DNA from: a virus | Taxonomy: Duplodnaviria > Caudoviricetes | IMG/VR virus record: IMGVR_UViG_3300037721_000087 | Span: 1-61,161 of that record | Strand: one strand, 5' to 3' | Length of the DNA stretch: 61,161 bases | Shown here: positions 5,760-59,395 of the stretch, one piece after another | Layout of the letters: each line of letters starts with the position of its first letter | How positions within the stretch are numbered: the stretch's first letter is position 1 | The notes under the pieces: generated by a model | Databases searched by the model: none | The model's input: only the letters and a program-made list of their open reading frames with translations | Told to the model about the DNA's origin: nothing | Program-made: the position numbers and the translations under genes

Positions 5760-5850
5760 ACCTCCGGTTGTGCGTTACAGACCGGCTCGCATCACCCAGA
5801 CCACCGTGCGCCAGACGGGCGCGCGGCCTACCCCGAAACGGGGAGCCGAA

Positions 5851-6429: not shown

Positions 6430-6435
6430 CGAACT

Positions 6436-6499
6436 CCCGCACGACCCGCCACAGAGGTCGCCTGCGGTCCGACAACGCTCCCTAGGAGGACTCTGTGGC
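6436..6499 (+). promoter_or_regulatory. Structured 5' leader, copy 1 (major capsid)
   Basis: CCCGCACGACCCGCCACAGAGGTCG...ACGCTCCCTAGGAGG.CTCTGTGGC, near-identical to 8970-9032. Confidence 0.75.
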
Positions 6500-7427: not shown

Positions 7428-7876
7428 TGATTCCCCTGGCCAGTGTCGCGGACATCGAGGCCCGCCTCGGCCGCAAGCTCTCCCCTGAGGAGAAGTTGCG
7501 CGCCGAGGGCGTCCTCGAAGACATCTCCGGCTTGGTCAGGGACATCGTCGGCCGCGATTTCCTGAACGAGGCCGGCACTGACCTCGTCGGAGTACCCCAC
7601 ACCGTCCTTGCGGTCGTCCGCAAGGCGGCCGAGCGCGCGATGCGCAACCCGGAGGGGTACTCCGGCGAGTCCACCGGGGATTACTCCTACCAGCGCCGGG
7701 GCGTCGAGGACGGTGTCTATCTGACCGAGGCGGAAGAGCGCCTGATCAGGCGTGCACTGGGACGGGGCGGGCTCTGGGTCCAGGAGACGACCCGGGGCGA
7801 CGAACTGCTCACCACCGGGTTCGTCGAGGACAACTACGGCTGCGAGCTGTTCCCACTCGACGTCTACCGGGAGTGA
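7427..7876 (+). CDS. Head-to-tail adaptor
   Basis: 'LASVADIEARLGRKL', 'RNPEGYSGESTGDYSY', 'YLTEAE'; overlaps capsid stop. Confidence 0.85.
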   Translation: MIPLASVADIEARLGRKLSPEEKLRAEGVLEDISGLVRDIVGRDFLNEAGTDLVGVPHTVLAVVRKAAERAMRNPEGYSGESTGDYSYQRRGVEDGVYLTEAEERLIRRALGRGGLWVQETTRGDELLTTGFVEDNYGCELFPLDVYRE

Positions 7877-8241
7877 CCGTGTCGGCCCTGCTCGATCGTG
7901 GACCGCACACGGTGACGATCTACCTGGTGGAGACCGGCACCGACACCTACGGCGGCGAGATCCTGCGCCCGTCGGACACGGGTGTCGTCATCTCCGGTTG
8001 CCTGCTCACGCCCATGGGTGCGGACCGGGACGCAACGTCCTACGTCTCCGCCCAGGCAGGCCTGCGCGAGGACCGTACCTGGCGGTTCCGCGCACGTCAG
8101 GCTCCGCTCGAACCCTGGGGCCGGGTCGAGTGGGACGACGCCGGTGTGGTCCGCCGGTTCACCGTCATCTCCGGTCCGTTGCGCTATGCCGTCACGGCGG
8201 CGACCACGCACATCGCAGCCACTCTGCACGAGGAGAACTGA
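7873..8241 (+). CDS. Head-to-tail stopper
   Basis: Synteny, GTGA overlap, 'SALLDRGPHTVTIY...DTYG'. Confidence 0.7.
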   Translation: MTVSALLDRGPHTVTIYLVETGTDTYGGEILRPSDTGVVISGCLLTPMGADRDATSYVSAQAGLREDRTWRFRARQAPLEPWGRVEWDDAGVVRRFTVISGPLRYAVTAATTHIAATLHEEN

Positions 8242-10147: not shown

Positions 10148-10506
10148 TCGACGATCACGGGGACGCACTGCTCTATGACCTGATGAGCATCGGCGTCGAC
10201 CTGCGGGACCTCTGGCGCCCCGGGTCGACGCTCACACCGCGTCTCGTGCTCAAGCTGGTCGGGCAACTTCCCGACGACTCCGCCTTCGCCGCCTCCATCC
10301 GAGGTGGACCCATGCATCGGGCCTGGGACCTGCACAACCGCCTCATTGCCGCCCAGGTCAACCTCCTGCACGGCGCCAACCAGCAGCGGGCCGGCAAGAA
10401 GGCCCGCCCCCTCGTGCAACCGCCCGACGCCAAGAAGATCAAGCGCGTGGTCACGGTCGCCGAGATCGCAGCACGACGCAAAGCGAGAGAGGAAGTGATC
10501 GAGTGA
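10120..10506 (+). CDS. Tail assembly chaperone frameshift extension (gpGT-like)
   Basis: -1 frame ORF 'GVDLRDLW...LPDDSAFAASIRGG'; GTGA overlap with tape measure. Confidence 0.8.
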   Translation, partial: GGSRELVQLIDDHGDALLYDLMSIGVDLRDLWRPGSTLTPRLVLKLVGQLPDDSAFAASIRGGPMHRAWDLHNRLIAAQVNLLHGANQQRAGKKARPLVQPPDAKKIKRVVTVAEIAARRKAREEVIE

Positions 10507-19200: not shown

Positions 19201-20837
19201 CGATCGCCGAAGGCGAGCCTGGGTCGACGTTCGTCACCCGGCTCTACGGGCCCGGTACCTGGAACGTGACCGGCCTGCCGCACGGCGTCGGGCACTTCGC
19301 TCGCTTCGTGTCGGTCGACCGGGTCGGCAACCGTCAGCCGACCCCCTCGCCGACGAGCGCGGCGGCCACCGCCGAGCAGCTGTTCCCCGACGATCTGCGT
19401 GACTCGATCATCAACGACCCGAACATGATCGCCGCGCAGACGATCGGCACCTTGCACGTGGTCGACGGCGCGATCATCCGCGCCAAGATCGGCAGTGCCG
19501 CGATCGGCTCCGCGCAGATCGAGGAGCTCGAGGTCGGGAAGCTCACCTCGGGCACCATGAACGCCACCGTGGTCGTTGCGGGGTCCTTCCGCACCAGCCT
19601 GAACAGCGCTGCCAACCGGCTGGAGATCGACGCTAACGGCATCCGGCTCTACCAGGGCAGCACGCAGATCGGCCGCTGGCAGGTCTCGGACGCATCCATG
19701 CTGGTCACTGGTACCTACCAGTCCGCCCTGTCCGGCGCGCGGATCAACATCTTCCCCGACGGGACGCTGCGGTTTTACCCGACCTCGGGCACGAACTACA
19801 GCCAGATGTCCAACGTCGGCACCGACGTCGTCTGGCGGGGACCGCTCGACGGCAGCAACCGCTCCGGCCGGATCAACGCGAACGCGCTCGGTGTCGGGAT
19901 CAACTTCTCCGCCGAGGCGAACCTGCTGGAGAGCATCCGCGCTGAGTTCGTCGTGCTCGACCGGCGCACCCGCATGCAGGCGCCGTTCATGGCCTTCGTC
20001 GTCGATGAAGGCTGGACCAACCCTGCCGGCGGGGTATTGCGAGCGCAGTTCTCGACTGCCCAGTCGAACGGGGCCACACGCCCCAACTCCTACGTCAGCT
20101 ACTACTGCAGCGACGAGGGCAACCGGGCTGGGGGGTTCTTCGGTCAGGGCGCTGGGATTAAGTTCGAGGGCGGGCAGGTGCTGGTTACCGGTGATGAGCT
20201 GTCGAACTTTGGAACGATCAAGGCGGCCGTGTTCGCGGAGGGCTCCTCGACGTCGGTCAAGACTGACATCGAGGATGCTCGCGCAGCGCTCGATCCAGCG
20301 GAGACGATCCGTGCTGCTCGGGCTGTCACGTACCGCTACACCAACGCCACCACTGACGATCCCAAGATCGGTGTGCTAGCCGAGGAGCTGCCCGACGTGC
20401 TTGTCCGTAACATCGACAACAGCCCCTCGATCGATCTTGGCTCACAGATCGGTGTGCTGTGGGGCTTCGCGAATCAGGTACTCGACCAGCAGATCGTGTC
20501 GACGAGCGGGAACGTCGTTCTACTCCGGAGCACTCTCGGACCAGGCGGCATCTTGCCCTCAGCCGCGACTGCCGAAGCAAACGTGGTGTGGGACTCCGTA
20601 CCTCCGGCAGCGCCTACCGGTGGGTTCGTGCAGCTGCACAGCTCGTTCGTCTGGGCCGGCAAGGTCACTGCTTGGATCAAGACCGGCACTGTCTCAGCAA
20701 CCGGCTGCACGGTGGTGTTCAAGAACATCTCGAATGGCCAGGTCGTCGTGAACGAGAACAATGACAACTTGCGCGTGAGCGCAACTGTTATCGGCCTCGG
20801 CCTCTTCACTCCACCCTACGAGCCTCCAGAGGAATGA
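16287..20837 (+). CDS. Large tail-tip / host-specificity protein (LamG-like N-terminus, tail hub, FN3-like repeats, S74-like chaperone)
   Basis: 1516 aa; 'ANTWYRVAIT', 'PPAAPTGV', 'AFDRSGNQGAW', 'VDRVGN', 'SSTSVKTDIED...IGVLAEEL'. Confidence 0.8.
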   Translation: MAVRFGGTAGYSATTGIPAGPASTFLFWLYPETTAPAFQSLIYLRNAAGANRWFETAGATIDTFSDVSGATTTAGAIAANTWYRVAITDNGTTTTIYLATQAGVFGTYTGNSPPPATPTLMRLAEAGATGGVERLTGRMAALKSWSATLTATEVAAEFAQFAPVRTTGLVRYHRFTNAATGATAQGGGASTLTVVGTITDAADPVGIPESAAVARTATSVTDTVTTVGYTMLQGELRTASSETGTSTVGEVTAVGHTAAAPSVTGTTTTGAVTSVAHTAEAMSPTDTTTSSSVTVAHFAEATSSTDTVTSVTFVRDTISLPSTGPLFFDFWVVDRATNTLVAPLPDYRDASIAPVLGEPGAVRITYPVDGLNYALLRDGVTHERDLELEVWVGGRKDAGQRVILMESNGDRVAEQGIHTFGGHFLPILLDEMVVLPDPTDEKQETRFVAATAGAIVKTLVQRAQTAGYLTGISTSSFSTTVDSNGVAWGQQANIKFSPGRKYLEVMADLAEYGLCEFEITPDRQLRLYKYGTRGVDRTIGASPMILRRGEHLTQSPRSTSVREAGTDLLAAGKEGLYRTESNATAAALRGRRILRYASANGLDDPEALIGWAQAQLVGASAGQDERAHELSFGPGNPLPIADYDLGDWIGTSTGDPTIGFERERVMQWSFEENEHGEVSGNVVTGTPFMDAVDRLRRRVAAIEGGSTVVGTSEPGAQEEDLTPPAAPTGVLASSIAYQDPEHTQTLAVVTVGWQPVTTNAEGSHDPKVQAAQLILDRMESVDPILEDWTWVDCPQVVRDYNDPLLALFEAEDPEPQPESWLQDYIDENTGTPTVTDDVAGYRVRYAYLGLAQVGGIPSSDPFPEDERVYYEATAPGGTTQTSHSFGGVEGGSNLRIEVCAFDRSGNQGAWTAIGHDVVNDALPPPTPSTPTVSTWFRTMDITWDGLGSAGEAMPPDFDHVEVHVSLANNFTPIAEGEPGSTFVTRLYGPGTWNVTGLPHGVGHFARFVSVDRVGNRQPTPSPTSAAATAEQLFPDDLRDSIINDPNMIAAQTIGTLHVVDGAIIRAKIGSAAIGSAQIEELEVGKLTSGTMNATVVVAGSFRTSLNSAANRLEIDANGIRLYQGSTQIGRWQVSDASMLVTGTYQSALSGARINIFPDGTLRFYPTSGTNYSQMSNVGTDVVWRGPLDGSNRSGRINANALGVGINFSAEANLLESIRAEFVVLDRRTRMQAPFMAFVVDEGWTNPAGGVLRAQFSTAQSNGATRPNSYVSYYCSDEGNRAGGFFGQGAGIKFEGGQVLVTGDELSNFGTIKAAVFAEGSSTSVKTDIEDARAALDPAETIRAARAVTYRYTNATTDDPKIGVLAEELPDVLVRNIDNSPSIDLGSQIGVLWGFANQVLDQQIVSTSGNVVLLRSTLGPGGILPSAATAEANVVWDSVPPAAPTGGFVQLHSSFVWAGKVTAWIKTGTVSATGCTVVFKNISNGQVVVNENNDNLRVSATVIGLGLFTPPYEPPEE

Positions 20838-25104: not shown

Positions 25105-25398
25105 ATGACCGTGGAGATGATCAGCGCGATCTCCACGGGGGCGATCGGGCTCATGACCGCACTCGCCGCACTACTGGCGAACCGGTCCCGCCGCCGTAGC
25201 GAGGACACCCGCGCGACACGTCGGCTCTACCGAGACCTGCAGCGCAAGTACCACGCCGCCATGGGGCATGTCTTCCTCCTCGAGCAGAAGCTCGTTCAGG
25301 CGCGTAAGCCGGTACCGCCCCGGCCCGAGATCCTGGAATCCGACGATGACGACGACGGACCACCTCCCACTCCAGTCCGCGCCAATGCCTCCGCCTGA
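25105..25398 (+). CDS. Membrane protein (lysis region)
   Basis: N-terminal TM 'ISAISTGAIGLMTALAALLA' then coiled coil. Confidence 0.6.
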   Translation: MTVEMISAISTGAIGLMTALAALLANRSRRRSEDTRATRRLYRDLQRKYHAAMGHVFLLEQKLVQARKPVPPRPEILESDDDDDGPPPTPVRANASA

Positions 25399-26212
25399 CC
25401 CCCTGGGCGGGGTGCACCGCAAGGAAGACCGCCCGGCCGTCCGGCTGTGGCTGGTCATCCTGCTCATGGTCGTGGGCATAGGTGCCACCGTCGGTGGGCT
25501 CTACACCACGTTCAACGTCGGCCAGGTCGAGGATCAGGCAGTCGCCGCGATCGAGGAACGCGACGCCACCGCCGTGCAGGCCGAGAATCTGGCCCGCCAG
25601 GTGATCGCCGTGTGCGAGCGCGGCGAGGTCGTGCCGAGCCCGACCGGGGACGATCTGTGCCAGCGCGCGGCAGAGGTCCGGGCCGAGCCGATCCCCGGCA
25701 TCCCGGGCGCGACCGGTGCCACGGGCCCGGAGGGCGAACGAGGACCCGGACCGACCGCGCAGCAGATCGAGGGCGCAGTGGCCGCCTACCTCGCCGAGAA
25801 CCCGCCCCCGGCCGGACGGCCGCCGAACGCGGCCGAGGTGACCGCAGCGGTCGCTCAGTACCTCACCGCCAACCCTCCCGCCCCCGGACGCCCACCGACC
25901 GCGAACGAGATCGAGAACGCGGTCGAGACCTGGTTCGCGAACAACCCGCCCCCGCCCGGCCCCGAAGGTGAGCGCGGACAGGAGGGCGAGCGCGGACAGA
26001 CCGGCGAGCGCGGGCCCGGCCCGACCACTGAGCAGGTCCAACAGGCCGTAGCCGACTACCTGCAGGAGAACCCGCCCCCGCCCGGCCCGGCATGCCCGGA
26101 GGGTTCCACCCTCCAGGGCGTGGTCTACGCCGACAACACGACCGGATACGGATGCGTGCTCGACGCCCAGACCCCGCCCGAGCCGCCCGAACCAACAACC
26201 GAGGGCGGGTAG
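25385..26212 (+). CDS. Membrane-anchored collagen-like / Pro-rich protein
   Basis: TM 'LWLVILLMVVGIGATVGGLY'; G-X-Y repeats; four 'AVxxYLxxNPPPxG'-type repeats. Confidence 0.75.
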   Translation: MPPPDPLGGVHRKEDRPAVRLWLVILLMVVGIGATVGGLYTTFNVGQVEDQAVAAIEERDATAVQAENLARQVIAVCERGEVVPSPTGDDLCQRAAEVRAEPIPGIPGATGATGPEGERGPGPTAQQIEGAVAAYLAENPPPAGRPPNAAEVTAAVAQYLTANPPAPGRPPTANEIENAVETWFANNPPPPGPEGERGQEGERGQTGERGPGPTTEQVQQAVADYLQENPPPPGPACPEGSTLQGVVYADNTTGYGCVLDAQTPPEPPEPTTEGG

Positions 26213-26215
26213 CAC

Positions 26216-26605
26216 GTGGCGAGGATCGACGAAGAGCTGGAGATGCCCCGGTTCGAGGCCGGCCTGCGGATCGCGACGGTGGCTCTGCTCGGCAGCGTCC
26301 TGGTCGGGCTGGCCGCTCTGATGTTCTACCTGATCACGTTCGCGCAGGACCAGCGCGAGACCAACGAGTGCTACCAGGCCCAGATCGTCGCGCTGACCAA
26401 CTGGGCGGCCGTCGTCTCACAGGCGGGCCGGTCCGACCGGCAGGCCCAGCGCGAACTTCTGCTCGCGCAGGGCGAGTTCGCGGGCGGCCAGAGCGGCGCG
26501 CTGGAGCGCTACCTGCGCCAGCTCGACGAGGCGGACCAGACCCGGTCCGCTGCCCCCGTCCCGCCACTCACGTGCGGTCGTACCGCACCGATGAACGGGA
26601 GCTGA
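26216..26605 (+). CDS. Membrane protein
   Basis: TM 'IATVALLGSVLVGLAALMFYLITFA'. Confidence 0.65.
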   Translation: MARIDEELEMPRFEAGLRIATVALLGSVLVGLAALMFYLITFAQDQRETNECYQAQIVALTNWAAVVSQAGRSDRQAQRELLLAQGEFAGGQSGALERYLRQLDEADQTRSAAPVPPLTCGRTAPMNGS

Positions 26606-26607
26606 GC

Positions 26608-26790
26608 ATGCGCACGCCCTACGGCGAGTGGCGCGAGGACGGCAACTCCTCGTCCGGGTACTCCTGGTTCAGCACCCGCCACGACGACGAGCACGCCGAA
26701 CTGCTCGCCTACCTGATCAACCCGGACGCTCTCCCCGCGTTCGACGAGGTCGACTCGACCACGATCGTCGACGACGGGACCCCCGACTGA
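26608..26790 (+). CDS. Small hypothetical protein
   Basis: MRTPYGEWRED...; stop overlaps endolysin ATG. Confidence 0.5.
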   Translation: MRTPYGEWREDGNSSSGYSWFSTRHDDEHAELLAYLINPDALPAFDEVDSTTIVDDGTPD

Positions 26791-27683
26791 TGCCCCTCGT
26801 CCGCTCGCAAAACGGCTGGTCCGCCAACGACCGGTCCATGGTCGCCTCCTACCAGATCCCCGGCGGCAAGGTCGCGCTCCGCAAGGGCGACGTCTCGGTC
26901 ATCCTCATCTGGTGCGCCCAGCGCTGGCACGAGACCGTCGAGCCGCTCGTCTGGCCCGGCAACTGGGGCTACGCGGAGCGCCCGGTGCGCGGCTCGGCCA
27001 CCACCTTGTCCAACCACGCGTCCGGCACGGCCATCGACCTGAACGCGCCCAAGCACCCGCTCGGCGTGCGCGGCACCTTCAGCGCCGGTCAGGTCCGGGC
27101 CGTGCGCGCCATCCTCGGGTTCTGCGAGGGCGTCGTGCGCTGGGGCGAGGACTACCGCTCCCGCGCCGACGGCATGCACCTGGAGATCAACGCAGGCGCA
27201 GCCGACGTCCGCCGCGTTGCCGACAAGATCCGCGCGCTGCCCAGCAGTGGCGGCTTCGTCGCAGCCGGCAAGACGCTCGCTCCCCCGCCACCCCCACCCG
27301 CACCGCCCTGGACCGAGGAGCACCGCGTGCACATCCCCCTCCCCGTCGACGCCTACGGCCGGTTCCGCGCCACCGCGATGGTCGAGACCGCATCGGTGGT
27401 CGCCTCGGACGCCTACGCCACCTGCGCCAGCACGTGGGGCAAGACCAAGTTCCTGATCACGGTCCTGCGCCACGACGGCGCCGTGCTCGCCCAGTGGCGC
27501 CCGGTGCTGGACAACAACCGGCAGTGGGGTGACCGGCTCCCGGTCGGCGCGCGCATCATCACCTTCGAGGGCCTGGTCGAGTTCGCTCCCGTCGAGGAAG
27601 AGCGCGACGAGGACGGGAACCTGCACCAGTCCGACCCCGGCACCCAGCCCGCCGCCGCGATCTGGACCCTGCCGCCCAAGTAG
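26790..27683 (+). CDS. Endolysin, M15-family zinc peptidase with C-terminal domain
   Basis: 'SQNGW', 'WGYAERPVRG', 'SNHASGTAIDLN', 'DGMHLEI', Pro linker. Confidence 0.9.
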   Translation: MPLVRSQNGWSANDRSMVASYQIPGGKVALRKGDVSVILIWCAQRWHETVEPLVWPGNWGYAERPVRGSATTLSNHASGTAIDLNAPKHPLGVRGTFSAGQVRAVRAILGFCEGVVRWGEDYRSRADGMHLEINAGAADVRRVADKIRALPSSGGFVAAGKTLAPPPPPPAPPWTEEHRVHIPLPVDAYGRFRATAMVETASVVASDAYATCASTWGKTKFLITVLRHDGAVLAQWRPVLDNNRQWGDRLPVGARIITFEGLVEFAPVEEERDEDGNLHQSDPGTQPAAAIWTLPPK

Positions 27684-28558: not shown

Positions 28559-28589
28559 CGTGACGCACATGCGTCACGGCTGGTAGTGT
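28559..28589 (+). promoter_or_regulatory. Promoter (GTGACG -35, extended -10 TGgTAGTGT) overlapped by an inverted repeat
   Basis: CGTGACGCA-CA-TGCGTCACG at 28559-28578; TG-G-TAGTGT at 28581-28589. Confidence 0.55.
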
Positions 28590-28676: not shown

Positions 28677-30230
28677 TCAGCGCTCGTTGAACGCCCAGCG
28701 CAGCGCAGCTCCGGTGCTGTCGACGAGGTCGTCGTGCTGACGAGGGTCCGGGAACCGGACGAGCTGGTCCTCCAGGTCGGCGAACCGGCGCGCGTGTACG
28801 ACCTGACCTCGTTCGTAGTGCGCCAGCGCGCGCTGCGCCCGGCTGCTCTTCGAACCAGACACCCACTCCCACGTAACGCGGTTGCCCGCCCGGCCGAACT
28901 GTTCAGGCAGGGGCATCCCCCGTGGCTCCAGAACCTTCGCCCAGTGCTCGGACCCGCCTGCGTTCTCCTCGACGATCAGGGTGCGCAGGCCCGGGTTCCG
29001 CTCGGCCAGGTCATGGATCCGGCTTCTGATCTGCTCACCGGTCAACCGCGCGTGCACGGCGTGCACCACGATCGCGCGACGACGATCCGCTGAGCGTCCA
29101 ACGACGGTCATGGCGGTGAGGTCGTTCTTCGAGCCGGTCTTGAGCGCGGGGTCGATCGCCAGCACGTACTCCGCCGCGTGGAAGCGCTCGACCGGCTCGT
29201 AGCGGAACAGGTCCGGCGTCCAGTAGGTGCCGCCCCGGCCGCTGTCCGCGCGCGGGTCCATCTCCACGTTCAGCGCGTAGCTGCGCGAGCCGCGCAGGTA
29301 CTCGCCGAAGTGGGTGTCCGTCAACGCCCACCGCTGCGGCCACAGTGACCGCTCCGCGCCGGTTTCGCGATCGACCAGGACACCGGGCCAGACGTGCGGA
29401 GTGAACCCGTTCTCGACCACCCATTCGGTCGGCTCGCCCTTGGCCGTGCGCACCACGTCGTGCAGCACGCTCTGGTACGCGGTCACCGTGCCGGTCAGCT
29501 GCACGATCGTGTCTGCCCCGCCCATCGGGAGCACGCCGGCCAGCACCTTGCGCAGGATCGACTCCTTGAGCGCGGGCGAGTGGTCCTCTTCCACTGGTTC
29601 GGCGTCGTCGATCACGATCAGGCCCGCTCGCTCGGCGGCGGATCGTGCGCCGAGCGCGGCCTCGCCCAGGCCACGGGACATGATCGTGGCGCCGCGCGTC
29701 ATCACGGTCGCCGACGTGTTCGACGTCCCGCGCCCGCGCACCGGCCGGAGCACGTCGTAGTCCTGCAGCAGGAGCTCGTTCTCGTCGAGTTGGCGCCGCA
29801 AGTGGGACAGGTGTAGCTTCGCCTGCTGGTGGTTGTACGAGAACGTGAAGGCGTACGTGCGGTGGCCATGAGCCAAGGCCCACAAGGGCAGGATCATGTG
29901 CAGCCACACGCTCTTGCCCGCCCCGCGTGGAGCCACCCATGCGTTGCGCTGTCCGCCCGGCTTGCGCCACGCCTTCGCTGACGCGGCCAGGTCCAGGTGT
30001 AGCTCGCTGAACGACATGTCCGTGTGATCGGGCAGGAGCAGGTACTCCTTCGGCATGTACACGATCGCGAACCGGAGCGGGGAGTCGCGCGTGACCCGGC
30101 GCCGGTACTCGCTCGAGGCCTGCACGGCGGCCGTGCGCAGGGGCGCGATCTCGCGCAGGAACCAGTCCCGCCAGGGCGAGCCCACCGGCGGGGGTGTGAT
30201 GGTCGTGCGTTCCTGCGCGAGAGCGGTCAT
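28677..30230 (-). CDS. Second terminase large subunit-like ATPase-nuclease
   Basis: Walker A 'APRGAGKS', Walker B 'LIVIDDAE', 'LTGT', 'LWPQRW', RNase H-like 'LAIDPA...DLTA', 'IVEENAGG', 'HDDLVDS'; ATGA overlap supports start at 30230. Confidence 0.88.
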   Translation of the reverse strand: MTALAQERTTITPPPVGSPWRDWFLREIAPLRTAAVQASSEYRRRVTRDSPLRFAIVYMPKEYLLLPDHTDMSFSELHLDLAASAKAWRKPGGQRNAWVAPRGAGKSVWLHMILPLWALAHGHRTYAFTFSYNHQQAKLHLSHLRRQLDENELLLQDYDVLRPVRGRGTSNTSATVMTRGATIMSRGLGEAALGARSAAERAGLIVIDDAEPVEEDHSPALKESILRKVLAGVLPMGGADTIVQLTGTVTAYQSVLHDVVRTAKGEPTEWVVENGFTPHVWPGVLVDRETGAERSLWPQRWALTDTHFGEYLRGSRSYALNVEMDPRADSGRGGTYWTPDLFRYEPVERFHAAEYVLAIDPALKTGSKNDLTAMTVVGRSADRRRAIVVHAVHARLTGEQIRSRIHDLAERNPGLRTLIVEENAGGSEHWAKVLEPRGMPLPEQFGRAGNRVTWEWVSGSKSSRAQRALAHYERGQVVHARRFADLEDQLVRFPDPRQHDDLVDSTGAALRWAFNER

Positions 30231-30346
30231 CGGCTCAGCAACCATCCCACGATCAATAGCACCGGGACCACGAGAAAGACGGTCCAGATCCCGAGCCAGA
30301 GCAAGAACTCGAACGCCCACGCGAGGTCGTACTCGTATGTGTTCAC
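30227..30346 (-). CDS. Small TM protein
   Basis: MNTYEYDLAWAFEFLLWLGIWTVFLVVPVLLIVGWLLSR; overlaps at both ends. Confidence 0.55.
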   Translation of the reverse strand: MNTYEYDLAWAFEFLLWLGIWTVFLVVPVLLIVGWLLSR

Positions 30347-53492: not shown

Positions 53493-55784
53493 GTGACCGA
53501 GTGGACCCAGCAGCTCGCGCTCGCCGAGGCCGTACGCGCCCGCGATCGTGGATGGCGCCCGTTCCCGGTCGACCACCCGCACGCGGTCGGTGCAGCGCTC
53601 GACGCCAAGGGCAACCCCACCGGGTGCTCCGGTGCGCACAAGCGCCCGGACTGGCTCCAGGGCATGCCGTGCGATGGCAAGCGCGGCAAGCACCCGGCCG
53701 TGAAGTTCAAGGACTCTGCCGCCACCTCGACAGCCCAGGGCGACGGCATGCTCGCCAGCTGGTTCACCCGGGGCGGTGAGCCGCGCAACGTGGGCATCGC
53801 CTGCGGGGCCAGCGGGCTGATCATCCTCGACTCCGACGAGCCGGGTGCGTTCGAGCGAATGGCCGTCGACCTAGGCCACGAGCTGCCGCGCACGTACCGG
53901 GTGCGCACCTCGGCGGACTGGCACTGGTACTTCGACGCCAGCGACCACCCCGACATCGGCAACGCCGAGGGCCTGCTCGCTGCCTACGGGATCAACGTGC
54001 GCGGCAAGGGCGGCTACGTGGTCGGCGCCGGCTCGCTGCACGCGAGCGGGCGCATCTACGCGGCCGAGGACCCGGACGCGCCCGTCGCACCCCTGCCGGC
54101 GTGGATCGCGCAGGCCATCGCTACGAAGGTGGACGGAGGAGAGGACGACGGCGAGACGTTCGACGGAGACCAGGACGCGCCCCGGTTCATCGACCAGGAG
54201 CAGGCCCTCGTCGAGTTCTACGAGGCCGTGGCCACCATCCAGCACCAGGGCAACACCTTCCGCCAGGACGAGCTCTTCCCGGCCGCGCTGGACGGCTGGC
54301 GGTGCGTGGACAACGGGTGGCTGACCGAGCGCCAGATGAAGCTCGCACTCAAGGACGCGATCTGGCGGGTGTGGAACGCCGACCCGGACGCGGCCGACAT
54401 CCAGATCATCAACGTCGAGGCGCGCAAGCGGGCCGACCGCTCGCCGTGGTTGCCCCATCCCGAGGTGCAGGAGATCGGTACGGCGCCGCCGGAGCCACCA
54501 CCCGTGGTGGGCCCGCCCGAGAACCCGATGGAGCTCGGCGACGCACCGGTGGACGTGCTCTCTGACCCGGACGCGGGGACGGCCGATCCGGCGGACGCGT
54601 TCGTCGAGCTGGCCTACACCCGGCTCAAGGCCAGGCGCATCGCCGAACGGCGACTCGACGCGGAGGAGGCGGGGGAGCCCGCGCCGCCCACGTCCACCAC
54701 TCTGCGGGACCTGCTCGCCGAGCCGGACGAGAGCGCGCCCTACCTCATCGCCGGGCTCTGGCCCATCGGCGGGAAGGTGATCCTGTCGGCCCAGCAGAAG
54801 GCCGGCAAGACCACGATGGTGGGCAACCTGCTCCGGTCGGTGGTCGACGGAGACCCCCTGCTCGGACCCAGGCCCGGCACGCTCGTCAGTGCGGGTGCAC
54901 ACCCCGGGTTCCCGGTCGACCCTTTGGGCGAGGACGAGGCCGTGTTCGTGGCCGACTTCGAGCTCGACCGGCGGATGATCCGGCGCTGGCTGCGCGACCA
55001 CCGGATCCGCAACGGCCACCGGGTGCACATCGAGACGTTCCGGGGGCAGACCTGGGACATGCGCGACGACCGGATCCGTGCCCAGTGGGCGCGGCACCTG
55101 CGCGACCTGAACGTCCGGGTCATCATCCTGGACCCACTCGCGCCCGTCCTCTCATCCTTGAACATCGACGAGATCGACAACAAGGGGGTGGGCCAGTTCC
55201 TGCACGCGATGGACGCGCTCGTCGCCGAGGCCGGCGCGGGAGAGCTGCTCATCACTCACCACACGACCCATGACGGAGAGCGTGGACGTGGCGCATCGGT
55301 CCTGCGCGGATGGCCGGACGCAGAGTGGCGCTTCGTGGTCGAGCGGCCCGAGAACGGGGGTGAGCCCGAGCCGGGCGCGGCCCGGTTCTTCGCCGCCACC
55401 GGACGCGACGTGGCCGAGCCGGAGCGGGCTCTGGCGTTCGAGGCGGAGACGCGCACCCTCTCGGTCGCGGGGGGGTCGCGCACTGCGCACGCGGTCGATC
55501 GGCACAGCGGGGCGCTCGTCGATCTGGTCAAGCTCACGCCCGGTATCGCCAAGCGGGACCTGATCGACGCCCTCAAGGGTGGGACCAAGGTCCGGTCCGA
55601 GACGGCCGCTGCGGTCATCATGACGGCGGTCAAGGCCGGGCTCATCCACGTGCACAACGGGCCGAACCGGTCCCTCGTGCACTACCCGGAGGCGCCCAAC
55701 CGGGGGTGCGCACACTGCTGGGACGAGGGTCTCGTGGGGCCCTCCAGCGGGGCCGAAAACGGTGTTACCGGAGCCGATTCGTAG
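53493..55784 (+). CDS. Bifunctional primase-polymerase fused to RepA-like (AAA_25) helicase
   Basis: 'GKHP', 'NVGIACG', 'IILDSD', 'HWYF', 'VRGKGGYVVGAGS'; Walker A 'QQKAGKTT', Walker B 'IILDP', 'HH', 'RGAS'. Confidence 0.9.
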   Translation: MTEWTQQLALAEAVRARDRGWRPFPVDHPHAVGAALDAKGNPTGCSGAHKRPDWLQGMPCDGKRGKHPAVKFKDSAATSTAQGDGMLASWFTRGGEPRNVGIACGASGLIILDSDEPGAFERMAVDLGHELPRTYRVRTSADWHWYFDASDHPDIGNAEGLLAAYGINVRGKGGYVVGAGSLHASGRIYAAEDPDAPVAPLPAWIAQAIATKVDGGEDDGETFDGDQDAPRFIDQEQALVEFYEAVATIQHQGNTFRQDELFPAALDGWRCVDNGWLTERQMKLALKDAIWRVWNADPDAADIQIINVEARKRADRSPWLPHPEVQEIGTAPPEPPPVVGPPENPMELGDAPVDVLSDPDAGTADPADAFVELAYTRLKARRIAERRLDAEEAGEPAPPTSTTLRDLLAEPDESAPYLIAGLWPIGGKVILSAQQKAGKTTMVGNLLRSVVDGDPLLGPRPGTLVSAGAHPGFPVDPLGEDEAVFVADFELDRRMIRRWLRDHRIRNGHRVHIETFRGQTWDMRDDRIRAQWARHLRDLNVRVIILDPLAPVLSSLNIDEIDNKGVGQFLHAMDALVAEAGAGELLITHHTTHDGERGRGASVLRGWPDAEWRFVVERPENGGEPEPGAARFFAATGRDVAEPERALAFEAETRTLSVAGGSRTAHAVDRHSGALVDLVKLTPGIAKRDLIDALKGGTKVRSETAAAVIMTAVKAGLIHVHNGPNRSLVHYPEAPNRGCAHCWDEGLVGPSSGAENGVTGADS

Positions 55785-55788
55785 ATCG

Positions 55789-55954
55789 TGTTCCCGTGAT
55801 CTTGCTCGGGGAACACGGGAACACGAAATCGAAGATCCTTTACGAGCCTCTGACCAGTATGTTCCCGTGTTCCCGCATGTTCCCCAAGATCATGGGAACA
55901 CCGGGAACGCCGATGTTCCCGCGCGTTCCCGGCCCCCCCCCTTTAGGGGGGCCG
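55789..55954. repeat. Putative replication origin with iteron-like repeats
   Basis: About 10 copies of (T/C)GTTCCC in both orientations plus CCGGCCCCCC...TTTA...GGGGGGCCGG, directly after the primase-helicase. Confidence 0.65.
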
Positions 55955-56063
55955 GAGCGGGGACACCCGTTGGCACACGACAAGATCATCTGCAAGATCG
56001 ACAACTCCACAGCGAAAACGCCCTCGTTCGACGGGCCGTAGAACGAGGGCGCATGCTTCGCCG

Positions 56064-56342
56064 ATGACCAAGCGCCGAGCCGTCCACCCCGATCGCCGTC
56101 CCGACGGCCGGGTGGTCGTCCCGGCACCGCGCCCCTCCCCGGACGTCCGCTGGGCCCAGGCGCTCGCCGCCACCAACGAGCTGTGCGCGTGGCAGCACGC
56201 CGGTGTCCGCTGCGTCGCCGGTGCGGTGGACGTGATCGACGGCCCGGACCCGACCGGTGCTCGGACCGGCCGGGCGGACCGGCCGATGTGCGCACGCCAC
56301 ATCCCGTACGCCCTGGCGGCCGGAGGTGTCCGGCTCCGTTGA
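56064..56342 (+). CDS. Hypothetical protein
   Basis: ORF after the origin with CAW/CVA/CARH motifs. Confidence 0.45.
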   Translation: MTKRRAVHPDRRPDGRVVVPAPRPSPDVRWAQALAATNELCAWQHAGVRCVAGAVDVIDGPDPTGARTGRADRPMCARHIPYALAAGGVRLR

Positions 56343-56463
56343 CCTGACTGCTATGGTTCGCCAGTCGATCGCGCTCCCCACGAGATCGGCGAGCAACCTC
56401 CGATGCGCCCGGACGTCTTGATGTTCGAGAGCACATCCCCCGATCGAGAGGACCCCGGCTCCC

Positions 56464-57159
56464 GTGAGGACCCGAACACTGCTCGCCAGCACGCTCGGCA
56501 CGCTCCTGCTCGCCGCGCTGACGCTCCCCGGCATCGCTACCGCGCAGCCTGCGGCCCGCCAGCCCGTCGTGATCACCGCCGCGAAGGCCTGCGGGGTCGT
56601 CACGCTCACGTTCGTGAACCCCGAGACCGACGTGGCCAAGGTGCACGGCTTCCGCTGGAACGCCGTGCGGGGCGACGTCGCCACCGCTGACGCAGCGCGC
56701 ACCGGGCTGGTCACCGTCGCCCCTCGCGCCACCGTCAAGGAGACGATCCGGTTCGACGAGGACGAGTTCGGCGGCGAGGCCGCCGTTACGGTGGCCGTCG
56801 CGTTCGGGCCCGACTCCGACATTCAGCCCCGCCTGGACGTCTACCCGGTCGACACCGACTGCACCGCCCCCAAACGCGGCGACGACTGCGTGGTCAAGGT
56901 CGGCGTGGACGCGGGCGAGGTCGGCAAGCTGAACCTGGGCCTGCTGTGCGAGAGCCTCACCCCGGGCACGACCGAACCGCCGGTGCCACCGACCACGACG
57001 GTCACCCCGCCGCCTCCGCCGTCGGTGACCACGAGCGTCGCCCCGCCCCCCGCGCCGTCCACCACGACCACCCGCCCCCGCGCGGTCGACCGCAGCAGCG
57101 ACGACGACTCGGGCGCCTATCCCGTCACGGCACCCGAGACCGGCGGATACACCCTCTGA
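56464..57159 (+). CDS. Secreted Pro/Thr-rich protein, candidate sortase substrate
   Basis: Signal peptide; Pro/Thr stalk; C-terminal 'YPVTAPETGGYTL'; coupled to sortase. Confidence 0.75.
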   Translation: MRTRTLLASTLGTLLLAALTLPGIATAQPAARQPVVITAAKACGVVTLTFVNPETDVAKVHGFRWNAVRGDVATADAARTGLVTVAPRATVKETIRFDEDEFGGEAAVTVAVAFGPDSDIQPRLDVYPVDTDCTAPKRGDDCVVKVGVDAGEVGKLNLGLLCESLTPGTTEPPVPPTTTVTPPPPPSVTTSVAPPPAPSTTTTRPRAVDRSSDDDSGAYPVTAPETGGYTL

Positions 57160-57728
57160 TGCGCCGCTTGGTCGCGATCATCGCGGCCGGGACGGTGCTC
57201 CTGGCCGGATGTGGGACGGCGCTCGACGAGCCCATCGCACCGCCGATCGTCGACACCACCCCGGCCCCCGGACTCGGACAAGTTCCCGACCCGGTCTCGG
57301 TCCAGATCCCCCGCATCGGCGTGGACGCCCCGCTCGTACCCACCGGGCGCACGCCAGAAGGGGCCTGGGAGGTGCCCAGCGTCGCCGCTGACGCGTCCTG
57401 GTACCAACCGGGACCAGAGCCAGGGGAGACCGGCGTTGCCGTGCTCCTGGGGCACGTGGACCTGAACGGAGAGCAGGGCGTGTTCGGACGCCTGCACGAG
57501 CTGGGGCCCGGGGACGAGATCGTGGTCCCGCACCCGGACGGCGCCACGCGCTGGACGGTGGCCGAGGTGCTGACCCGACCCAAGGCCGAGTTCAACGTGC
57601 AGGACGTGCTCAGCCCGGAGGCCGAGCCCGAGCTCGTGCTGATCACATGCGGCGGGAATTTGACCAGGACCGAGCGCGGTGGGCGGTACGAGGACAACGT
57701 GGTGGTCGTCGCCCGGCTCAGCGGGTGA
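57159..57728 (+). CDS. Class F sortase (predicted lipoprotein)
   Basis: Lipobox 'LLAGC'; 'IPRIGVDAP', 'GPEPGE', His in 'LGHVD', Cys in 'LITCGG', 'YEDNVVV'. Confidence 0.9.
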   Translation: MRRLVAIIAAGTVLLAGCGTALDEPIAPPIVDTTPAPGLGQVPDPVSVQIPRIGVDAPLVPTGRTPEGAWEVPSVAADASWYQPGPEPGETGVAVLLGHVDLNGEQGVFGRLHELGPGDEIVVPHPDGATRWTVAEVLTRPKAEFNVQDVLSPEAEPELVLITCGGNLTRTERGGRYEDNVVVVARLSG

Positions 57729-57864
57729 AGGTCACGTGGCAGCACTACCGCACCGGCGGATGGCGGCCCCTCTTCGGGTGGGTGCGCAGCCCGCACACGG
57801 TCGTGTTCAGGATCGGTGCCGCCGGCCACCGGTGGACCGTGCTCGTACGGATCAGGGGGTCGAG

Positions 57865-58590
57865 ATGACCGAACCGTTCCTGCGCCCCGAATGGGCCTGC
57901 GTCCTGCACGCCCCGCCCCGCCGCACCGGTGCCTGGGCTCGCGCGGACCAGTCCTATCGGACGTGCAGCTCGTGCCTCGATAACTTGCGGGACCGGCTCA
58001 AAGAGATCGCCATCCGCTGGGTCCGGCTCTCGCCCGCGCCCGGCGCACAGGGCGAGTCCGGCGGACGGGGTGCGCCCGGGTACGGATCCCGCTCACCCGG
58101 CTCCGACCACGTCATCGCCATGCGCGACCGTCGTTCGTCCCGGGAAGCGCGGGTGTGGGTGGCGCGCGACGGGCGGGTGCACGCCGAGACCGAACGCCCG
58201 CCCCTGAGCGTGCACGCCGAGCTCGCCCAGTTCGCCGGGTTCATCGTCGAGGCGCGCCAGGTGGCGTGCGGGGCGCGCAGCGTGCCAGAGCTCGTGCGCT
58301 GGCTCGACGCCCAGCTCGACTGGGTCACCCGTCGCGAAGGCGTGCTCGACCTGGACCGCGTTCTGCGCGACCTGATCGCGCAGCTGCGCCCGGTCACCGG
58401 CGAGCCCGGCCGGCGCCGGATCGGCACCTGCCCGAACACGGTCGCGGGCGACACCGAGCACCCGCGTGAGTGCGGGGCGGTGCTCTACGCGCCTCTCAAG
58501 GACGACACCATCCGCTGTACTGCATGTGCGCGCGTGTGGACTCGGGACCAGTGGCTCGAGCTGGGGCAGTTGCTCCAGGTGGCGTCCTGA
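57865..58590 (+). CDS. Zn-binding hypothetical protein, possible late regulator
   Basis: CSSC, 'IGTCP...CGAVLY...IRCTACARVW'; last large gene before the HNH and genome end. Confidence 0.6.
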   Translation: MTEPFLRPEWACVLHAPPRRTGAWARADQSYRTCSSCLDNLRDRLKEIAIRWVRLSPAPGAQGESGGRGAPGYGSRSPGSDHVIAMRDRRSSREARVWVARDGRVHAETERPPLSVHAELAQFAGFIVEARQVACGARSVPELVRWLDAQLDWVTRREGVLDLDRVLRDLIAQLRPVTGEPGRRRIGTCPNTVAGDTEHPRECGAVLYAPLKDDTIRCTACARVWTRDQWLELGQLLQVAS

Positions 58591-59077: not shown

Positions 59078-59395
59078 ATGGCCTGGTCGCAGCACCCCAG
59101 CTCGCGCAGGGCCACTCTGCCGCCGGACTGGTACACCCGCGTCCGGCCGGCCGTCCTGCGCCGTGACGGGTACCGGTGCCAGATCCAGGGCCCCCGCTGT
59201 GTCACCACGGCCAACCAGGTCGACCACGTGGACGACCCGCACGACCACCGGCTCCAGAACCTGCGCGCAGGCTGCGAGCCGTGCCACCACGACCGCAGCG
59301 CCCAGCAGGGCGGGTCCGCGTCGGGGACGGCTAGACGAGCACGTACAGCCGCCAGGAAGCGGCCTCAGGAAAGTCACCCGGGGCTGATCAGCTGA
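59078..59395 (+). CDS. HNH endonuclease (packaging-associated type)
   Basis: 'VLRRDGYRCQ', 'VDHV', 'NLRAGCEPCH'; near the right end. Confidence 0.9.
   Translation: MAWSQHPSSRRATLPPDWYTRVRPAVLRRDGYRCQIQGPRCVTTANQVDHVDDPHDHRLQNLRAGCEPCHHDRSAQQGGSASGTARRARTAARKRPQESHPGLIS

Follow-up and report, generated by a model that had tools for sequence, protein, structure and literature searches.

Textbooks require of a sorting signal both a membrane segment and a charged tail. Among the sortases, class F is understood least, and its function and structure are called unknown in reviews (PMC8225981, PMC11231552). The only class F enzyme studied biochemically, SrtF of Propionibacterium (Cutibacterium) acnes (Di Girolamo et al. 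2019), is cited there as a housekeeping sortase that cleaves LPXTG-type signals (PMC8225981, PMC11231552), and a His-Cys-Arg triad is stated for all sortases (PMC8225981). Deletion of all four class F sortases of Actinoplanes missouriensis reportedly gave no phenotype (PMC13251363). For phages, a preprint describes sortases of huge gut phages with a putative substrate gene immediately upstream, for which host-surface display was proposed (bioRxiv 10.64898/2026.10.24.761521). In our search of the literature for phage sortases, only these class B enzymes of huge gut phages, with normal anchors, were found (2026 preprint); the literature searches also returned no paper on the GVDTG sorting domain NF058571 (among the matches listed) and no description of anchorless neighbours of bacterial class F sortases. 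Here we describe a pair of phage genes, termed gene 1 and gene 2, that comprises a candidate anchorless substrate and a sortase of class F type.

The window, by which we mean the whole stretch of 61,161 nucleotides that was analysed, is an IMG/VR virus record of 61 kb and ~69% G+C, with a CheckV completeness of 84%. The gene pair (56464-57728) is embedded in it among genes for TerS, TerL, portal, major head protein, tape measure, endolysin, primase and HNH proteins, and the earlier description of the record as a phage agrees with the virion, packaging, lysis and replication genes that surround the pair. The cassette is flanked by a primase/polymerase gene (53493-55784) and by a PHROG-908 protein, farther past which lie an HNH endonuclease, TerS and TerL. 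A small ORF (56064-56342; third-position GC ~0.9) precedes the cassette, leaving a gap of 121 nt to the GTG of gene 1. A search for an integrase in this record, 84% complete by CheckV, found none, and a lysogen-based role of the cassette is therefore unsupported. No match was obtained among 50,697 GenBank phage records by tblastn with both proteins or by blastn with the locus. The stretch is present in one public DNA run, and the RNA runs listed with it number 0. A separately assembled contig from that DNA run covers 56644-57800 with 0 differences and 0 gaps; the run is probably the source sample, hence this agreement does not constitute independent data.

Within the 121-nt gap, the first-pass annotation had marked a candidate extended -10 element, TGcTATGGT (TGCTATGGT), at 56349-56357 on the + strand; the motif is present there, and its role as a promoter is putative. 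The pattern TGNTANNNT has 5 matches on both strands of the 61-kb window, compared with a mean of 10.95 in shuffles, and because it is this rare a copy in the gap before gene 1 is unlikely to be placed there by chance (~1 in 100, by arithmetic from those densities). Scanning 55600-58100 for the TTGACA/TATAAT consensus yielded 0 promoters and 0 terminators, and RNA folding at both cassette flanks was not better than that of shuffled sequence (z 0.54 and -0.18). The promoter evidence for the cassette is one short motif. A Shine-Dalgarno-like GAGAGGA (56446-56452, + strand) stands 11 nt ahead of the gene 1 GTG and may function as such.

Gene 2 (57159-57728 including the stop, + strand), which Pfam, NCBIfam, AlphaFold2 and Foldseek identify as a sortase of class F type, encodes 189 residues, and its ATG at 57159 shares one base with the TGA of gene 1 (TGATG). 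The Pfam Sortase family PF04203 matches residues 48-187 over profile positions 1-124 of 125, with 75.4 bits (cut-off 26.6; E 4.3e-21). NCBIfam class_F_sortase NF033748 is the best family by far (138.3 bits, E 1.6e-40); the next best, TIGR01076, reaches E 1.2e-5, the class E model E 6e-4, and no class B model is listed. The earlier naming of gene 2 as a class F sortase holds as to the nearest family. Because 138.3 bits falls short of the NCBI cut-off of 166, we use the term class F-type only: by profile comparison, class F is the class nearest to this sortase, which is either class F-type or of a divergent branch, and not a member by the NCBI rule. PHROGs and PADLOC matched no family to gene 2, and a sequence search of solved structures with the single gene 2 sequence gave 0 matches. 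The AlphaFold2 model (pLDDT 83.8) has eight strands. Foldseek against the PDB returned 122 matches at E <= 0.001, all of them sortases among the matches listed; the best is 2w1j (E 1.4e-8, TM 0.56), and pilus-type class C sortases are, marginally, the nearest to the model.

The N-terminus of gene 2, MRRLVAIIAAGTVLLAGC, has a lipobox, L15-A16-G17-C18 (57201-57212, + strand), at the end of its signal peptide, at which the protein is presumably lipidated; L-[AT]-G-C is found at the same place in most aligned sortase relatives, phage-like as well as bacterial. We aligned 23 class F-type sequences, including named class F sortases of Kutzneria, Actinomadura, Umezawaea, Lentzea, Pseudonocardia, Amycolatopsis, Streptomyces and others, and observed that H99, T163, C164, G165, G166, Y177 and N180 are invariant in 23/23 and all kept in gene 2. 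The codons, all on the + strand, are 57453-57455 for the catalytic His99 (GHVD), 57648-57650 for the catalytic Cys164 (LITCGG), directly after strand beta7 (158-163 in the model), and 57696-57698 for Asn180 (YEDNVVV), at the start of the last strand (179-187 in the model). The lipobox and the H, C and N of GHVD, LITCGG and DNVVV had all been read correctly before; the H/C/N pattern is a trait of the whole class and not peculiar to gene 2. The last strand of the model begins with D179-N180, R111 is conserved in at least 90% of the sequences, and the bacterial member P0019 has no Arg anywhere past the catalytic Cys. Judging from the strand order of the model, Asn180 probably occupies the place of the catalytic Arg of other sortase classes, and because an Asn would stand there the chemistry of gene 2 may differ from that of other sortases. 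Profile alignments to solved structures end at the catalytic Cys, leaving the position of the Arg unmapped.

Gene 1 (56464-57159 including the stop, + strand; GTG start, third-position GC 0.91) is an open reading frame for a candidate secreted sortase substrate of 231 residues. Its N-terminus combines an RTR n-region and a hydrophobic core with A-T-A|Q at residues 25-28, from which we predict a signal peptide of residues 1-27 (56464-56544, + strand) ending in an invariant A27; in gene 1 relatives an AxA-Q type cleavage site falls in the same alignment column. The following cargo domain (residues ~31-134; 56554-56865, + strand) is predicted from AlphaFold2 and the alignment to be an Ig-like beta-sandwich of seven strands, with blocks over residues 31-130 modelled at pLDDT 81-96, and contains Cys43 and Cys133, both invariant among aligned relatives. 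Foldseek with the gene 1 model gave only generic Ig/FN3-like beta-sandwich matches (best E 7.7e-4), so that no function is drawn from the fold; the best ESM Atlas score for the cargo domain, 0.78, lies under the meaningful level, and no Pfam, PHROG or PADLOC family matches gene 1. A Pro/Thr-rich stalk (residues ~166-204; 56959-57075, + strand), of low confidence and unstructured in the model, recurs with variable length in the relatives.

The C-terminus of gene 1 reads YPVTAPETGGYTL-stop. The sorting motif P-V-T-A-P-E-T-G (residues 220-227; 57121-57144, + strand) aligns to a family block P-x-G-G-V-x-T-G, and what follows is G-Y-T-L and the TGA stop (57145-57159, + strand), with nothing hydrophobic or basic past the TG. 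By analogy with other sortase classes, the cut would fall between T226 and G227. The LPXTG signal model TIGR01167 does not match gene 1 at E <= 1, the motif being APETG and anchorless, and NF058571 is likewise absent from the matches at that level. Compared with the bacterial tag PxG[GA][PVAG]xTG, that of gene 1 has T and not G at the third position and A-P where the family has G-V; the frame, A-P-x-T-G core and P at -7 are as in the NF058571 tag. On this sequence comparison, the gene 1 motif appears to be a variant of a signal already curated by NCBI, the 'GVDTG sorting domain' NF058571. The signal peptide, Cys-containing domain, Pro/Thr stalk, LPXTG-like end and absence of an anchor that the first-pass annotation had described in gene 1 were all found as placed.

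We found and aligned 30 relatives of gene 1, all of which stop 0-8 residues past the TG; they end in P-x-x-x-x-x-T-G in 28 cases and in LPVTG in the other 2. A profile of the cargo domain gathered 75 cluster representatives among 1.84 billion proteins, of which 35 have xxxTG and then at most 8 residues and 14 have L[PA]xTG followed by a membrane segment and then a basic tail; large proteins with many repeats account for 17, and fragments or other proteins for 9. In terms of its sequence relatives, the cargo domain is a module of surface proteins. Its sole nearly invariant lysine, K41, is R in the relative P0131 and N in P0149 and P0150; a pilin-like Lys nucleophile in gene 1 was considered and rejected on that ground. 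We also observed, at locus L002, a gene 1 relative that lies between head genes and has no sortase anywhere in the 7 kb of that locus; a gene 1-type substrate does not always travel with a sortase. The cargo domain was not seen among 80 bacterial class F loci, and a scan of 185,579 species genomes for gene 1 relatives with two peptide patterns matched 40 stretches, of which 0 were confirmed.

The bacterial loci are informative about the tag. Among the 78 bacterial class F sortase loci with enough flank, 61 have an adjacent upstream ORF that bears PxG[GA][PVAG]xTG. In 44 of these 61 neighbours the tag is followed by a hydrophobic stretch and then an Arg-rich tail, while 17 have only 3-12 residues past the tag and are anchorless; the anchorless signal is not peculiar to this phage, or to phages. 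NF058571 is the best match of the anchored bacterial neighbours, at 18.6-24.5 bits against a cut-off of 29, and the anchorless proteins L079, L024, P0123 and L092 have no NF058571 match. Two or three tagged proteins stand in a row ahead of the sortase in four of the bacterial loci (L006, L017, L056, L057). The sortase family is overwhelmingly bacterial, with at least 587 relatives confirmed in species genomes, and the bacterial sortases closest to gene 2 are, among the matches listed, at most ~50% identical to it.

A search of IMG/VR with the single gene 2 sequence found none, and with an alignment as query it found 27 further contigs with a class F-type sortase. Nearly all upstream proteins on the 27 contigs are anchorless. 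Of 29 viral loci that we classed, the window and L003 included, 23 are anchorless and 2 anchored; the other 4, which the pattern missed, have variant tags and, by eye, no membrane anchor. At least 14 of the viral loci have virion or lysis genes no more than 10 kb away. The stop codon of the substrate gene overlaps or adjoins the start codon of the sortase gene in the window, and also in L086, L104, L110 and L112. Pfam searches with ten viral substrates gave weak Excalibur matches in two proteins and one GA-like match only. The relatives found are all uncultured.

The site of the cassette varies. In L003, L089, L099 and L103 it lies after a homologue of the window gene 26216-26605; in the window itself that gene is followed directly by the endolysin, and the cassette stands instead after the primase. 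In related phages the cassette lies ahead of the lysis genes, and in L091 ahead of TerL; L092 has in common with the window only the tail genes 16287-20837 and 25268-26212. Since the site differs, before the lysis genes in related phages and after the primase in the window, we suggest that the pair behaves as a mobile accessory ('moron') cassette. By raw counts, anchorless tags look enriched in viral loci (anchorless to anchored 23:2, versus 25:47; Fisher p 4e-7); an independent-pairs test of viral against anchorless, with only 2 phylogenetically independent pairs on supported branches, had no power. In a sortase tree made quickly under LG+G4, support is lacking for 50 of the 106 inner branches and the viral rows are scattered among bacterial ones; at least 8 viral/bacterial label changes are needed, in a tree that is poorly resolved. 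The rows L101, L066, L070 and L102 stand on long branches, for which poor automatic extraction is the probable cause, and no donor or sequence of events is drawn from the tree.

From these observations, we hold it rather probable that genes 1 and 2 form a working sortase-substrate pair by which a phage protein is covalently displayed on the host envelope, and that this pair is an accessory cassette carried by an uncultured, siphovirus-like phage whose hosts are high-GC Actinomycetota. The sequences establish how the genes are built, to which families they belong, and that both the pairing and the anchorless tag are conserved; that cleavage occurs, what the acceptor is, when the genes are expressed and how the phage benefits are deductions from this. 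Gene 1 is likely, by its sequence, to be the dedicated substrate of gene 2, and the earlier proposal of a coupled anchorless substrate is in keeping with the conserved end and with the recurrent pairing with class F-type sortases. Because gene 1 ends in a sortase tag and adjoins a sortase, the phage probably fixes its own protein on the surface of the infected cell. Superinfection exclusion and receptor masking, the purposes put forward in the first-pass annotation, are conceivable roles of such a protein. Complex prediction with residues 40-189 of the sortase and 190-231 of the substrate scored 0.34, against 0.01 for the best control, which lends weak support: among solved complexes 58 of 80 attain the pass mark, among mismatched pairs 2 of 110, and at scores <= 0.60 the passes are only 7 of those 80 complexes and both passing mismatches. 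At least 87% of contacts agree between runs, with a partner pLDDT of at least 50. As sortase-peptide complexes have already been solved, part of this score may reflect likeness to them.

Under the sortase-substrate reading, genes 1 and 2 would be translated as a coupled pair. The gene 1 protein would be exported by Sec and lose its signal peptide, exposing the Ig-like domain on its Pro/Thr stalk, and the gene 2 sortase, of class F type, would be held by its lipid anchor at the external side of the membrane. The enzyme would recognise the C-terminal PVTAPETG of gene 1 (in peptide form, the expected substrate is PVTAPETGGYTL), cut past Thr226 and free the pentapeptide GGYTL. An amino group in the host envelope, most probably that of a peptidoglycan precursor, would then accept the gene 1 protein, so that the infected cell would show the phage protein covalently. 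Given that gene 1 has no membrane anchor, the enzyme must capture its substrate without membrane retention, for which coupled synthesis beside a membrane-tethered enzyme may serve.

Gene 2 could also process gene 1 and yet join it to another protein or to itself, as a pilus-like polymer or a cross-link, or trim and release it, in which case the anchorless end would mark a secreted and not a wall-bound product. We regard this as unlikely, though it is the most probable of the alternatives. In its favour, gene 1 carries no signal for membrane retention, the usual Arg is apparently an Asn across the class, Foldseek places the model marginally nearest the pilus-type class C sortases, tagged proteins stand in rows in L006, L017, L056 and L057 as in pilus operons, and the class F quadruple mutant reportedly showed no wall-related phenotype (PMC13251363). 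Against it, K41 varies among relatives, so that a fixed pilin-type nucleophile is unlikely, and 44 of the 61 tagged bacterial neighbours have a complete canonical anchor, pointing to ordinary wall sorting for the class. Anchored proteins that span the wall are usually built with a Pro/Thr stalk ahead of their tag, as gene 1 is. That the two genes are mere neighbours, the xxTG end being conserved for some other role, seems to us very improbable. The gene 1 relative of L002 without an adjacent sortase, and a cargo family that is in neither PHROGs nor Pfam, fit such an explanation; it does not fit with a tag borne by unrelated cargo directly upstream of class F sortases at 61 of 78 bacterial and most viral loci, with distant members of the cargo family that have a canonical L[PA]xTG anchor signal where gene 1 has its tag, or with the overlapping or abutting codons in the window and four other loci, and the support from complex prediction is weak and not nil.

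Still a little less probable, in our estimate, is a cassette of recently captured host DNA without function for the phage, or an inactive remnant. Such an origin would accord with a sortase family that is so largely bacterial (at least 587 confirmed relatives) and with the mixing of viral and bacterial rows in the poorly resolved tree, at no fewer than 8 label changes. Both frames are intact, however, and every class-invariant residue is kept; the nearest bacterial sortases, at ~50% identity or less among the matches listed, are too distant for recent capture; the cargo domain occurs in 0 of 80 bacterial class F loci and was confirmed in none of the 185,579 species genomes scanned with two patterns; and related phages hold the cassette at another site. 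The first-pass annotation had itself asked whether a sequencing error could have removed a normal membrane tail. An error of sequencing or assembly, or a frameshift, might be suspected in a metagenome record with a single public DNA run containing the stretch, but all 30 relatives, from many samples, end 0-8 residues past the TG, as do 35 of 75 in the wider family; the sequence past the stop is the start of the sortase itself, and the second assembly of the run is base-identical over 56644-57800. We consider the chance of such an artefact negligible, and these comparative sequences refute it for practical purposes: because it is conserved across gene 1 relatives, the anchorless end is, as the alignment indicates, a real feature and not a sequencing error. 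A fusion of gene 1 to the sortase signal peptide by read-through or frameshift, which would give a membrane segment, was also considered, and no evidence for it was found.

The preferred reading, covalent display of gene 1 by gene 2, can be extended to a broader hypothesis that we offer tentatively and think rather doubtful as it stands. Anchorless GVxTG-type tags may represent a second, undescribed route by which sortases are fed, in which a lipoprotein class F-type enzyme with Asn for Arg uses a short C-terminal tag to pick up a fully secreted protein that no membrane retains, and which actinobacterial phages have taken over repeatedly, with interchangeable cargo, to rewrite the host surface. 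One possible use of such a route would be receptor masking, which would keep both progeny and rivals from adsorbing to debris and to cells already infected.

Among known systems, the locus resembles bacterial class F loci (NF033748) with GVDTG proteins (NF058571), which share with it the H, TCGG, Y and N of the enzyme, an upstream substrate gene on the same strand, the tag frame P-x-x-[GA]-[PVA]-x-T-G and, in many cases, an enzyme that is a lipoprotein. Unlike NF058571 proteins, gene 1 has neither a membrane segment nor a basic tail, which together account for most of that 44-position profile; unlike the bacterial class F loci, the window has its pair in a phage, its enzyme scores under the family cut-off, and its cargo domain is found in 0 of 80 of them. 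The anchorless bacterial neighbours (in Amycolatopsis and Pseudonocardia, among others at L011, L016, L019, L024, L028, L052 and L079) resemble the gene 1 type, with 3-12 residues past the tag, ends such as TGDGSLA.., TGGGPA.. and TGGAGLR and, in some, an Excalibur-like Ca-binding module ahead of the tag, as in gene 1 relatives; they differ from the window in being chromosomal, among housekeeping genes, and in carrying other cargo (choice-of-anchor P in L024). The class E sortases SrtE1 and SrtE2 of Streptomyces coelicolor, which act on chaplins, are actinobacterial and use a tag with a small residue before x-T-G, a point of likeness to the window (PMC5148588), and distant cargo-domain relatives of gene 1 have LAxTG with a full anchor, as class E LAXTG substrates do. 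Class E substrates keep their membrane anchor, unlike gene 1, and the class E model reaches only E 6e-4 on gene 2. SrtF is assigned to the same class as gene 2, and its reported substrates are canonical LPXTG proteins and not GVxTG-type or anchorless ones.

An anchorless tag contradicts the textbook rule for sorting signals and, if it works, would provide a compact natural tag for sortase-based ligation. The cassette, with one enzyme and one small dedicated substrate, offers a clean pair for defining the class F tag, its acceptor and the role of the Asn. The sortase modules of huge gut phages are described in the preprint as class B with a His-Cys-Arg triad, in phages >200 kb of gut Bacillota, and their substrates as having PXTG, a hydrophobic segment and a basic tail (bioRxiv 10.64898/2026.10.24.761521); the window instead has a class F-type enzyme with Asn, an anchorless gene 1 and a 61-kb phage. 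If our reading is true, phage remodelling of the cell surface by sortases gains a second enzyme class besides class B and extends from huge gut phages to actinophages of ordinary size in soil or sediment.

The sequence features from which the first-pass annotation had drawn a two-gene unit, a secreted protein followed by a sortase, are all present at their assigned places in the window. Gene 1, the candidate substrate (56464-57159, plus strand), has a GTG start 11 nt past GAGAGGA and encodes 231 residues; its TGA overlaps the ATG of gene 2 (57159-57728, plus strand), the class F-type sortase lipoprotein, the two codons sharing an A. Gene 1 reads as a signal peptide (cleavage between A-T-A and Q, residues 25-28), a domain with two invariant cysteines (Cys43 and Cys133), an insert specific to the window with two further cysteines, a Pro/Thr stalk (residues about 166-204) and, between the stalk and the C-terminal tag, an acidic patch. 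It ends Y-P-V-T-A-P-E-T-G-G-Y-T-L-stop, with no membrane anchor, as had been noted. No family in Pfam, NCBIfam, PHROG or PADLOC matched it.

The missing anchor could in principle reflect a sequencing error that removed a normal membrane tail, an explanation excluded by the relatives of gene 1. In a collection of 5.8 billion clusters there are 30 of these, gene 1 included, from metagenomes or unnamed records; their alignment reveals a well conserved N-terminal domain and a variable linker, and many contain an Excalibur-like Ca-binding module. In all 30 the tag is followed by 0-8 residues and a stop, and a hydrophobic or basic tail is absent from every one. The tag is P-x-x-x-x-x-T-G in 28 (mostly P-x-G-G-V-x-T-G-G) and LPVTG-stop in two. 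A separate assembly of the one public DNA run that contains the stretch is also identical at the gene 1 end. The cassette with its anchorless tag is real and conserved.

Gene 2 begins MRRLVAIIAAGTVLLAGC, which includes a lipobox, and lipoproteins are common among the aligned bacterial relatives too. It scores 75.4 bits against the Pfam Sortase family, and among NCBI models class F is by far the best (E 1.6e-40; next family 1.2e-5), which places it closest to class F, although the score of 138.3 bits lies below the curated cut-off of 166. An AlphaFold2 model (pLDDT 83.8) has the eight sortase strands, and the solved folds closest to it all belong to sortases. In an alignment of 23 sequences, among them named class F sortases from many actinomycete genera, the catalytic-region residues H99, T163-C164-G165-G166, Y177 and N180 are invariant, and gene 2 has every one of them. 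A conserved arginine after the catalytic cysteine was found nowhere in this alignment, and one bacterial member has no arginine there at all. N180, the first residue of the last strand, would occupy the position of the catalytic arginine in other sortase classes. The catalytic H, C and N had thus been correctly identified, but since they are invariant across the aligned sortases the pattern is a property of the class and not peculiar to the phage gene.

For comparison, we inspected the ORF ending just before the sortase at 80 bacterial class F loci, 78 of which had enough flank. The pattern PxG[GA][PVAG]xTG occurs in the last 70 residues of this ORF at 61 of the 78 loci and was not found at 17. 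A hydrophobic stretch and Arg-rich tail complete a canonical sorting signal in 44 of the 61 tagged proteins; the other 17 have just 3-12 residues past the tag. The anchored proteins match best, below cut-off, NCBIfam NF058571 ('GVDTG sorting domain'), and the anchorless ones have no match. Because the tag lies upstream of so many class F sortases, anchored or not, we read it as the signal of the class, and the anchorless form, which in Amycolatopsis and Pseudonocardia sits among housekeeping genes, as a natural variant in bacteria also. The anchorless signal, present in all 30 relatives of gene 1, is not specific to phages. Seven Amycolatopsis loci share an upstream neighbour gene and differ in the tagged protein: L009, L010, L013 and L020 have PSGAPQTG and a full anchor, L011 has an anchorless PQGAPRTG-DGSLAP-stop, and in L007 and L008, which read A-[RK]-A-G instead of x-T-G, DGS.. 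and a stop come next. Across these loci the anchor seems evolutionarily labile, as does even the threonine of the tag.

The structure model of gene 1 has a confident seven-strand beta-sandwich at residues about 31-130, the Ig-like cargo domain, and is otherwise disordered; a fold search returned generic Ig/FN3-like matches only. A profile of the domain matched 75 proteins among 1.84 billion representatives (E <= 0.001) and none at the 80 bacterial class F loci. Of these proteins, 35 stop within 8 residues of an xxxTG motif, 14 more distant ones have L[PA]xTG with a membrane segment and basic tail, 17 exceed 600 residues and hold many partial domain repeats, and 9 are fragments or other. From these C-terminal classes we consider the cargo domain to be a surface-protein module commonly anchored by sortases, which favours interpreting the gene 1 C-terminus as a sorting tag. 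Among the 17 large proteins, P0152 (4145 aa) contains 26 stretches of partial repeat and P0158 (2337 aa) 21; these two and the other 15 may be giant adhesin-like proteins.

The first-pass annotation had suggested searching phage genomes for a class F sortase with a tagged upstream protein, and such a search of IMG/VR, with an alignment as query, yielded class F-type sortases on 27 contigs, mostly with anchorless neighbours. Under a relaxed pattern, and with the window and the related contig L003 included, 23 of 29 viral loci are anchorless, two are anchored (L097 and L098, near-identical to each other) and four were missed by the pattern; by eye, these four have variant tags without a membrane anchor, such as GVDTGDGSLA-stop and GGVQTDGGVE-stop. 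The ratio of anchorless to anchored loci is 23:2 in viruses versus 25:47 in bacteria under the same pattern (Fisher p 4e-7). Since the rows are mutually related and a quick sortase tree was poorly resolved, with just two independent pairs on supported branches, we give the greater frequency of anchorless tags in phage cassettes, which the raw counts suggest, as a trend and not a result.

At least 14 loci have virion or lysis genes within 10 kb of the cassette. Seven (L003, L089, L091, L092, L099, L102 and L103) are homologous to structural genes of the window, and at seven a selected neighbour matched PHROG: a portal in L101, an endolysin in L090 and tail proteins in L104, L105, L107, L110 and L111. 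Selected neighbours in L087, L093, L095, L098 and L109 had no PHROG match. In L094 the cassette neighbours an FtsK/SpoIIIE-like gene (5007-8087), and this contig may be another kind of element, for example conjugative, instead of a phage. DarB-like antirestriction/methyltransferase-helicase giants lie beside the cassette in L108 (171-4967) and L112 (1-2601).

The window record is linear, 61,161 bases long, 84% complete (CheckV) and of about 69% G+C, and its gene content is that of a siphovirus-like phage. On the structural and lysis side there are TerS (50-415) and TerL (417-2171), a portal gene (2969-4441), genes for the major head protein (6495-7427), the tape measure (10503-15008) and the minor tail and fibre proteins, and an endolysin gene (26628-27683). 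A primase/polymerase gene (53493-55784) and a second HNH endonuclease (59078-59395) are also present, and one minus-strand block holds helicase, exonuclease, RuvC-like resolvase and HNH genes. Phage genes flank the cassette, the primase on one side and a PHROG-908 protein (57865-58590) on the other. In L003, L089, L099 and L103 it directly follows a homologue of window gene 26216-26605, ahead of lysis genes; in the window that site holds the endolysin, and the cassette is 30 kb off, after the primase. L092 has only tail genes 16287-20837 and 25268-26212 in common with the window. The 7-kb contig L002 carries a close gene 1 relative (4854-5492, ending VVVPRGGVSTGGGPA) between ORFs of 231 and 310 aa, downstream of a portal-sized gene, and has no sortase anywhere along its length; order and size suggest that the neighbours are head genes, the partial terminase alone being matched to a window gene. 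These differing sites, together with L002, indicate that the cassette and its parts are mobile, moron-like, within this phage group. Separately, a second TerL-like gene (28677-30320, minus strand; phrog_38, E 1.2e-57) adjoins the lysis region; it keeps its relative place in L003 and L103 and resembles the partial terminase preceding the portal gene in L002.

The cassette is immediately preceded by a Cys- and Arg-rich ORF of 92 aa (56064-56342) with a third-position GC of about 0.9, probably a real gene, for which PHROG offers no family. The candidate extended -10, TGCTATGGT, is present at 56349-56357, inside the 121-nt gap between this ORF and gene 1. The motif TGNTANNNT is under-represented in the window (5 matches, at 16292, 28581, 47693, 52358 and 56349, versus 10.95 expected), so that the copy before gene 1 is mildly meaningful. 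The copies at 28581, 52358 and 56349 lie in inter-ORF gaps upstream of plus-strand genes and may be promoters of the phage. A consensus promoter and terminator scan of the cassette flanks found none, and neither flank gave a signal in RNA folding. Directly past the primase stop codon, some 450 bp ahead of the cassette, lies a cluster (55786-55932) of short repeats, both direct and inverted, based on GGGAACAC/GTGTTCCC; exact GGGAACAC occurs six times in the whole window (1.99 expected genome-wide), five of them within 55788-55901. The cluster may be a replication origin or an operator array.

We propose that genes 1 and 2 would be translationally coupled and both products exported by Sec, the sortase being lipidated. 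The sortase would recognise PVTAPETG, form a thioacyl at C164 with release of GGYTL and transfer the gene 1 protein onto an envelope amine, so displaying the Ig-like domain atop its Pro/Thr stalk. A complex prediction with the catalytic domain and the C-terminal 42 residues of the gene 1 protein scored 0.34 (best control 0.01), with contact agreement of at least 87% and partner pLDDT of at least 50 across runs; among 80 solved complexes 58 reached the pass mark, against 2 mismatched pairs out of 110, and those that did so at scores of 0.60 or under were just 7 of the 80 and both of the mismatches. The prediction weakly suggests that the sortase may bind this region. A role in superinfection exclusion or receptor masking is possible. 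Since the window record yielded neither a tyrosine nor a serine recombinase, such roles would act in lytic infection unless the missing 16% encodes an integrase.

Among the 15 listed of 70 papers matched by tag strings, GVDTG does not occur and no title concerns class F sortases. In other published work, SrtF is described as of unclear function and undetermined structure (PMC11231552), S. coelicolor is credited with five class F enzymes (PMC5148588), and deletion of four class F sortases in Actinoplanes is reported to give no phenotype, the physiological roles being stated as unknown (PMC13251363). PMC8225981 states that P. acnes SrtF recognises LPXTG and that all sortases possess His-Cys-Arg. 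Comparative sequence evidence gives good support to a phage-borne sortase/substrate pair that uses a non-canonical, anchorless signal. The sole report of phage sortases that we found, a preprint (bioRxiv 10.64898/2026.10.24.761521), describes 24 class B sortases of huge gut phages, with substrates that bear a full sorting signal.
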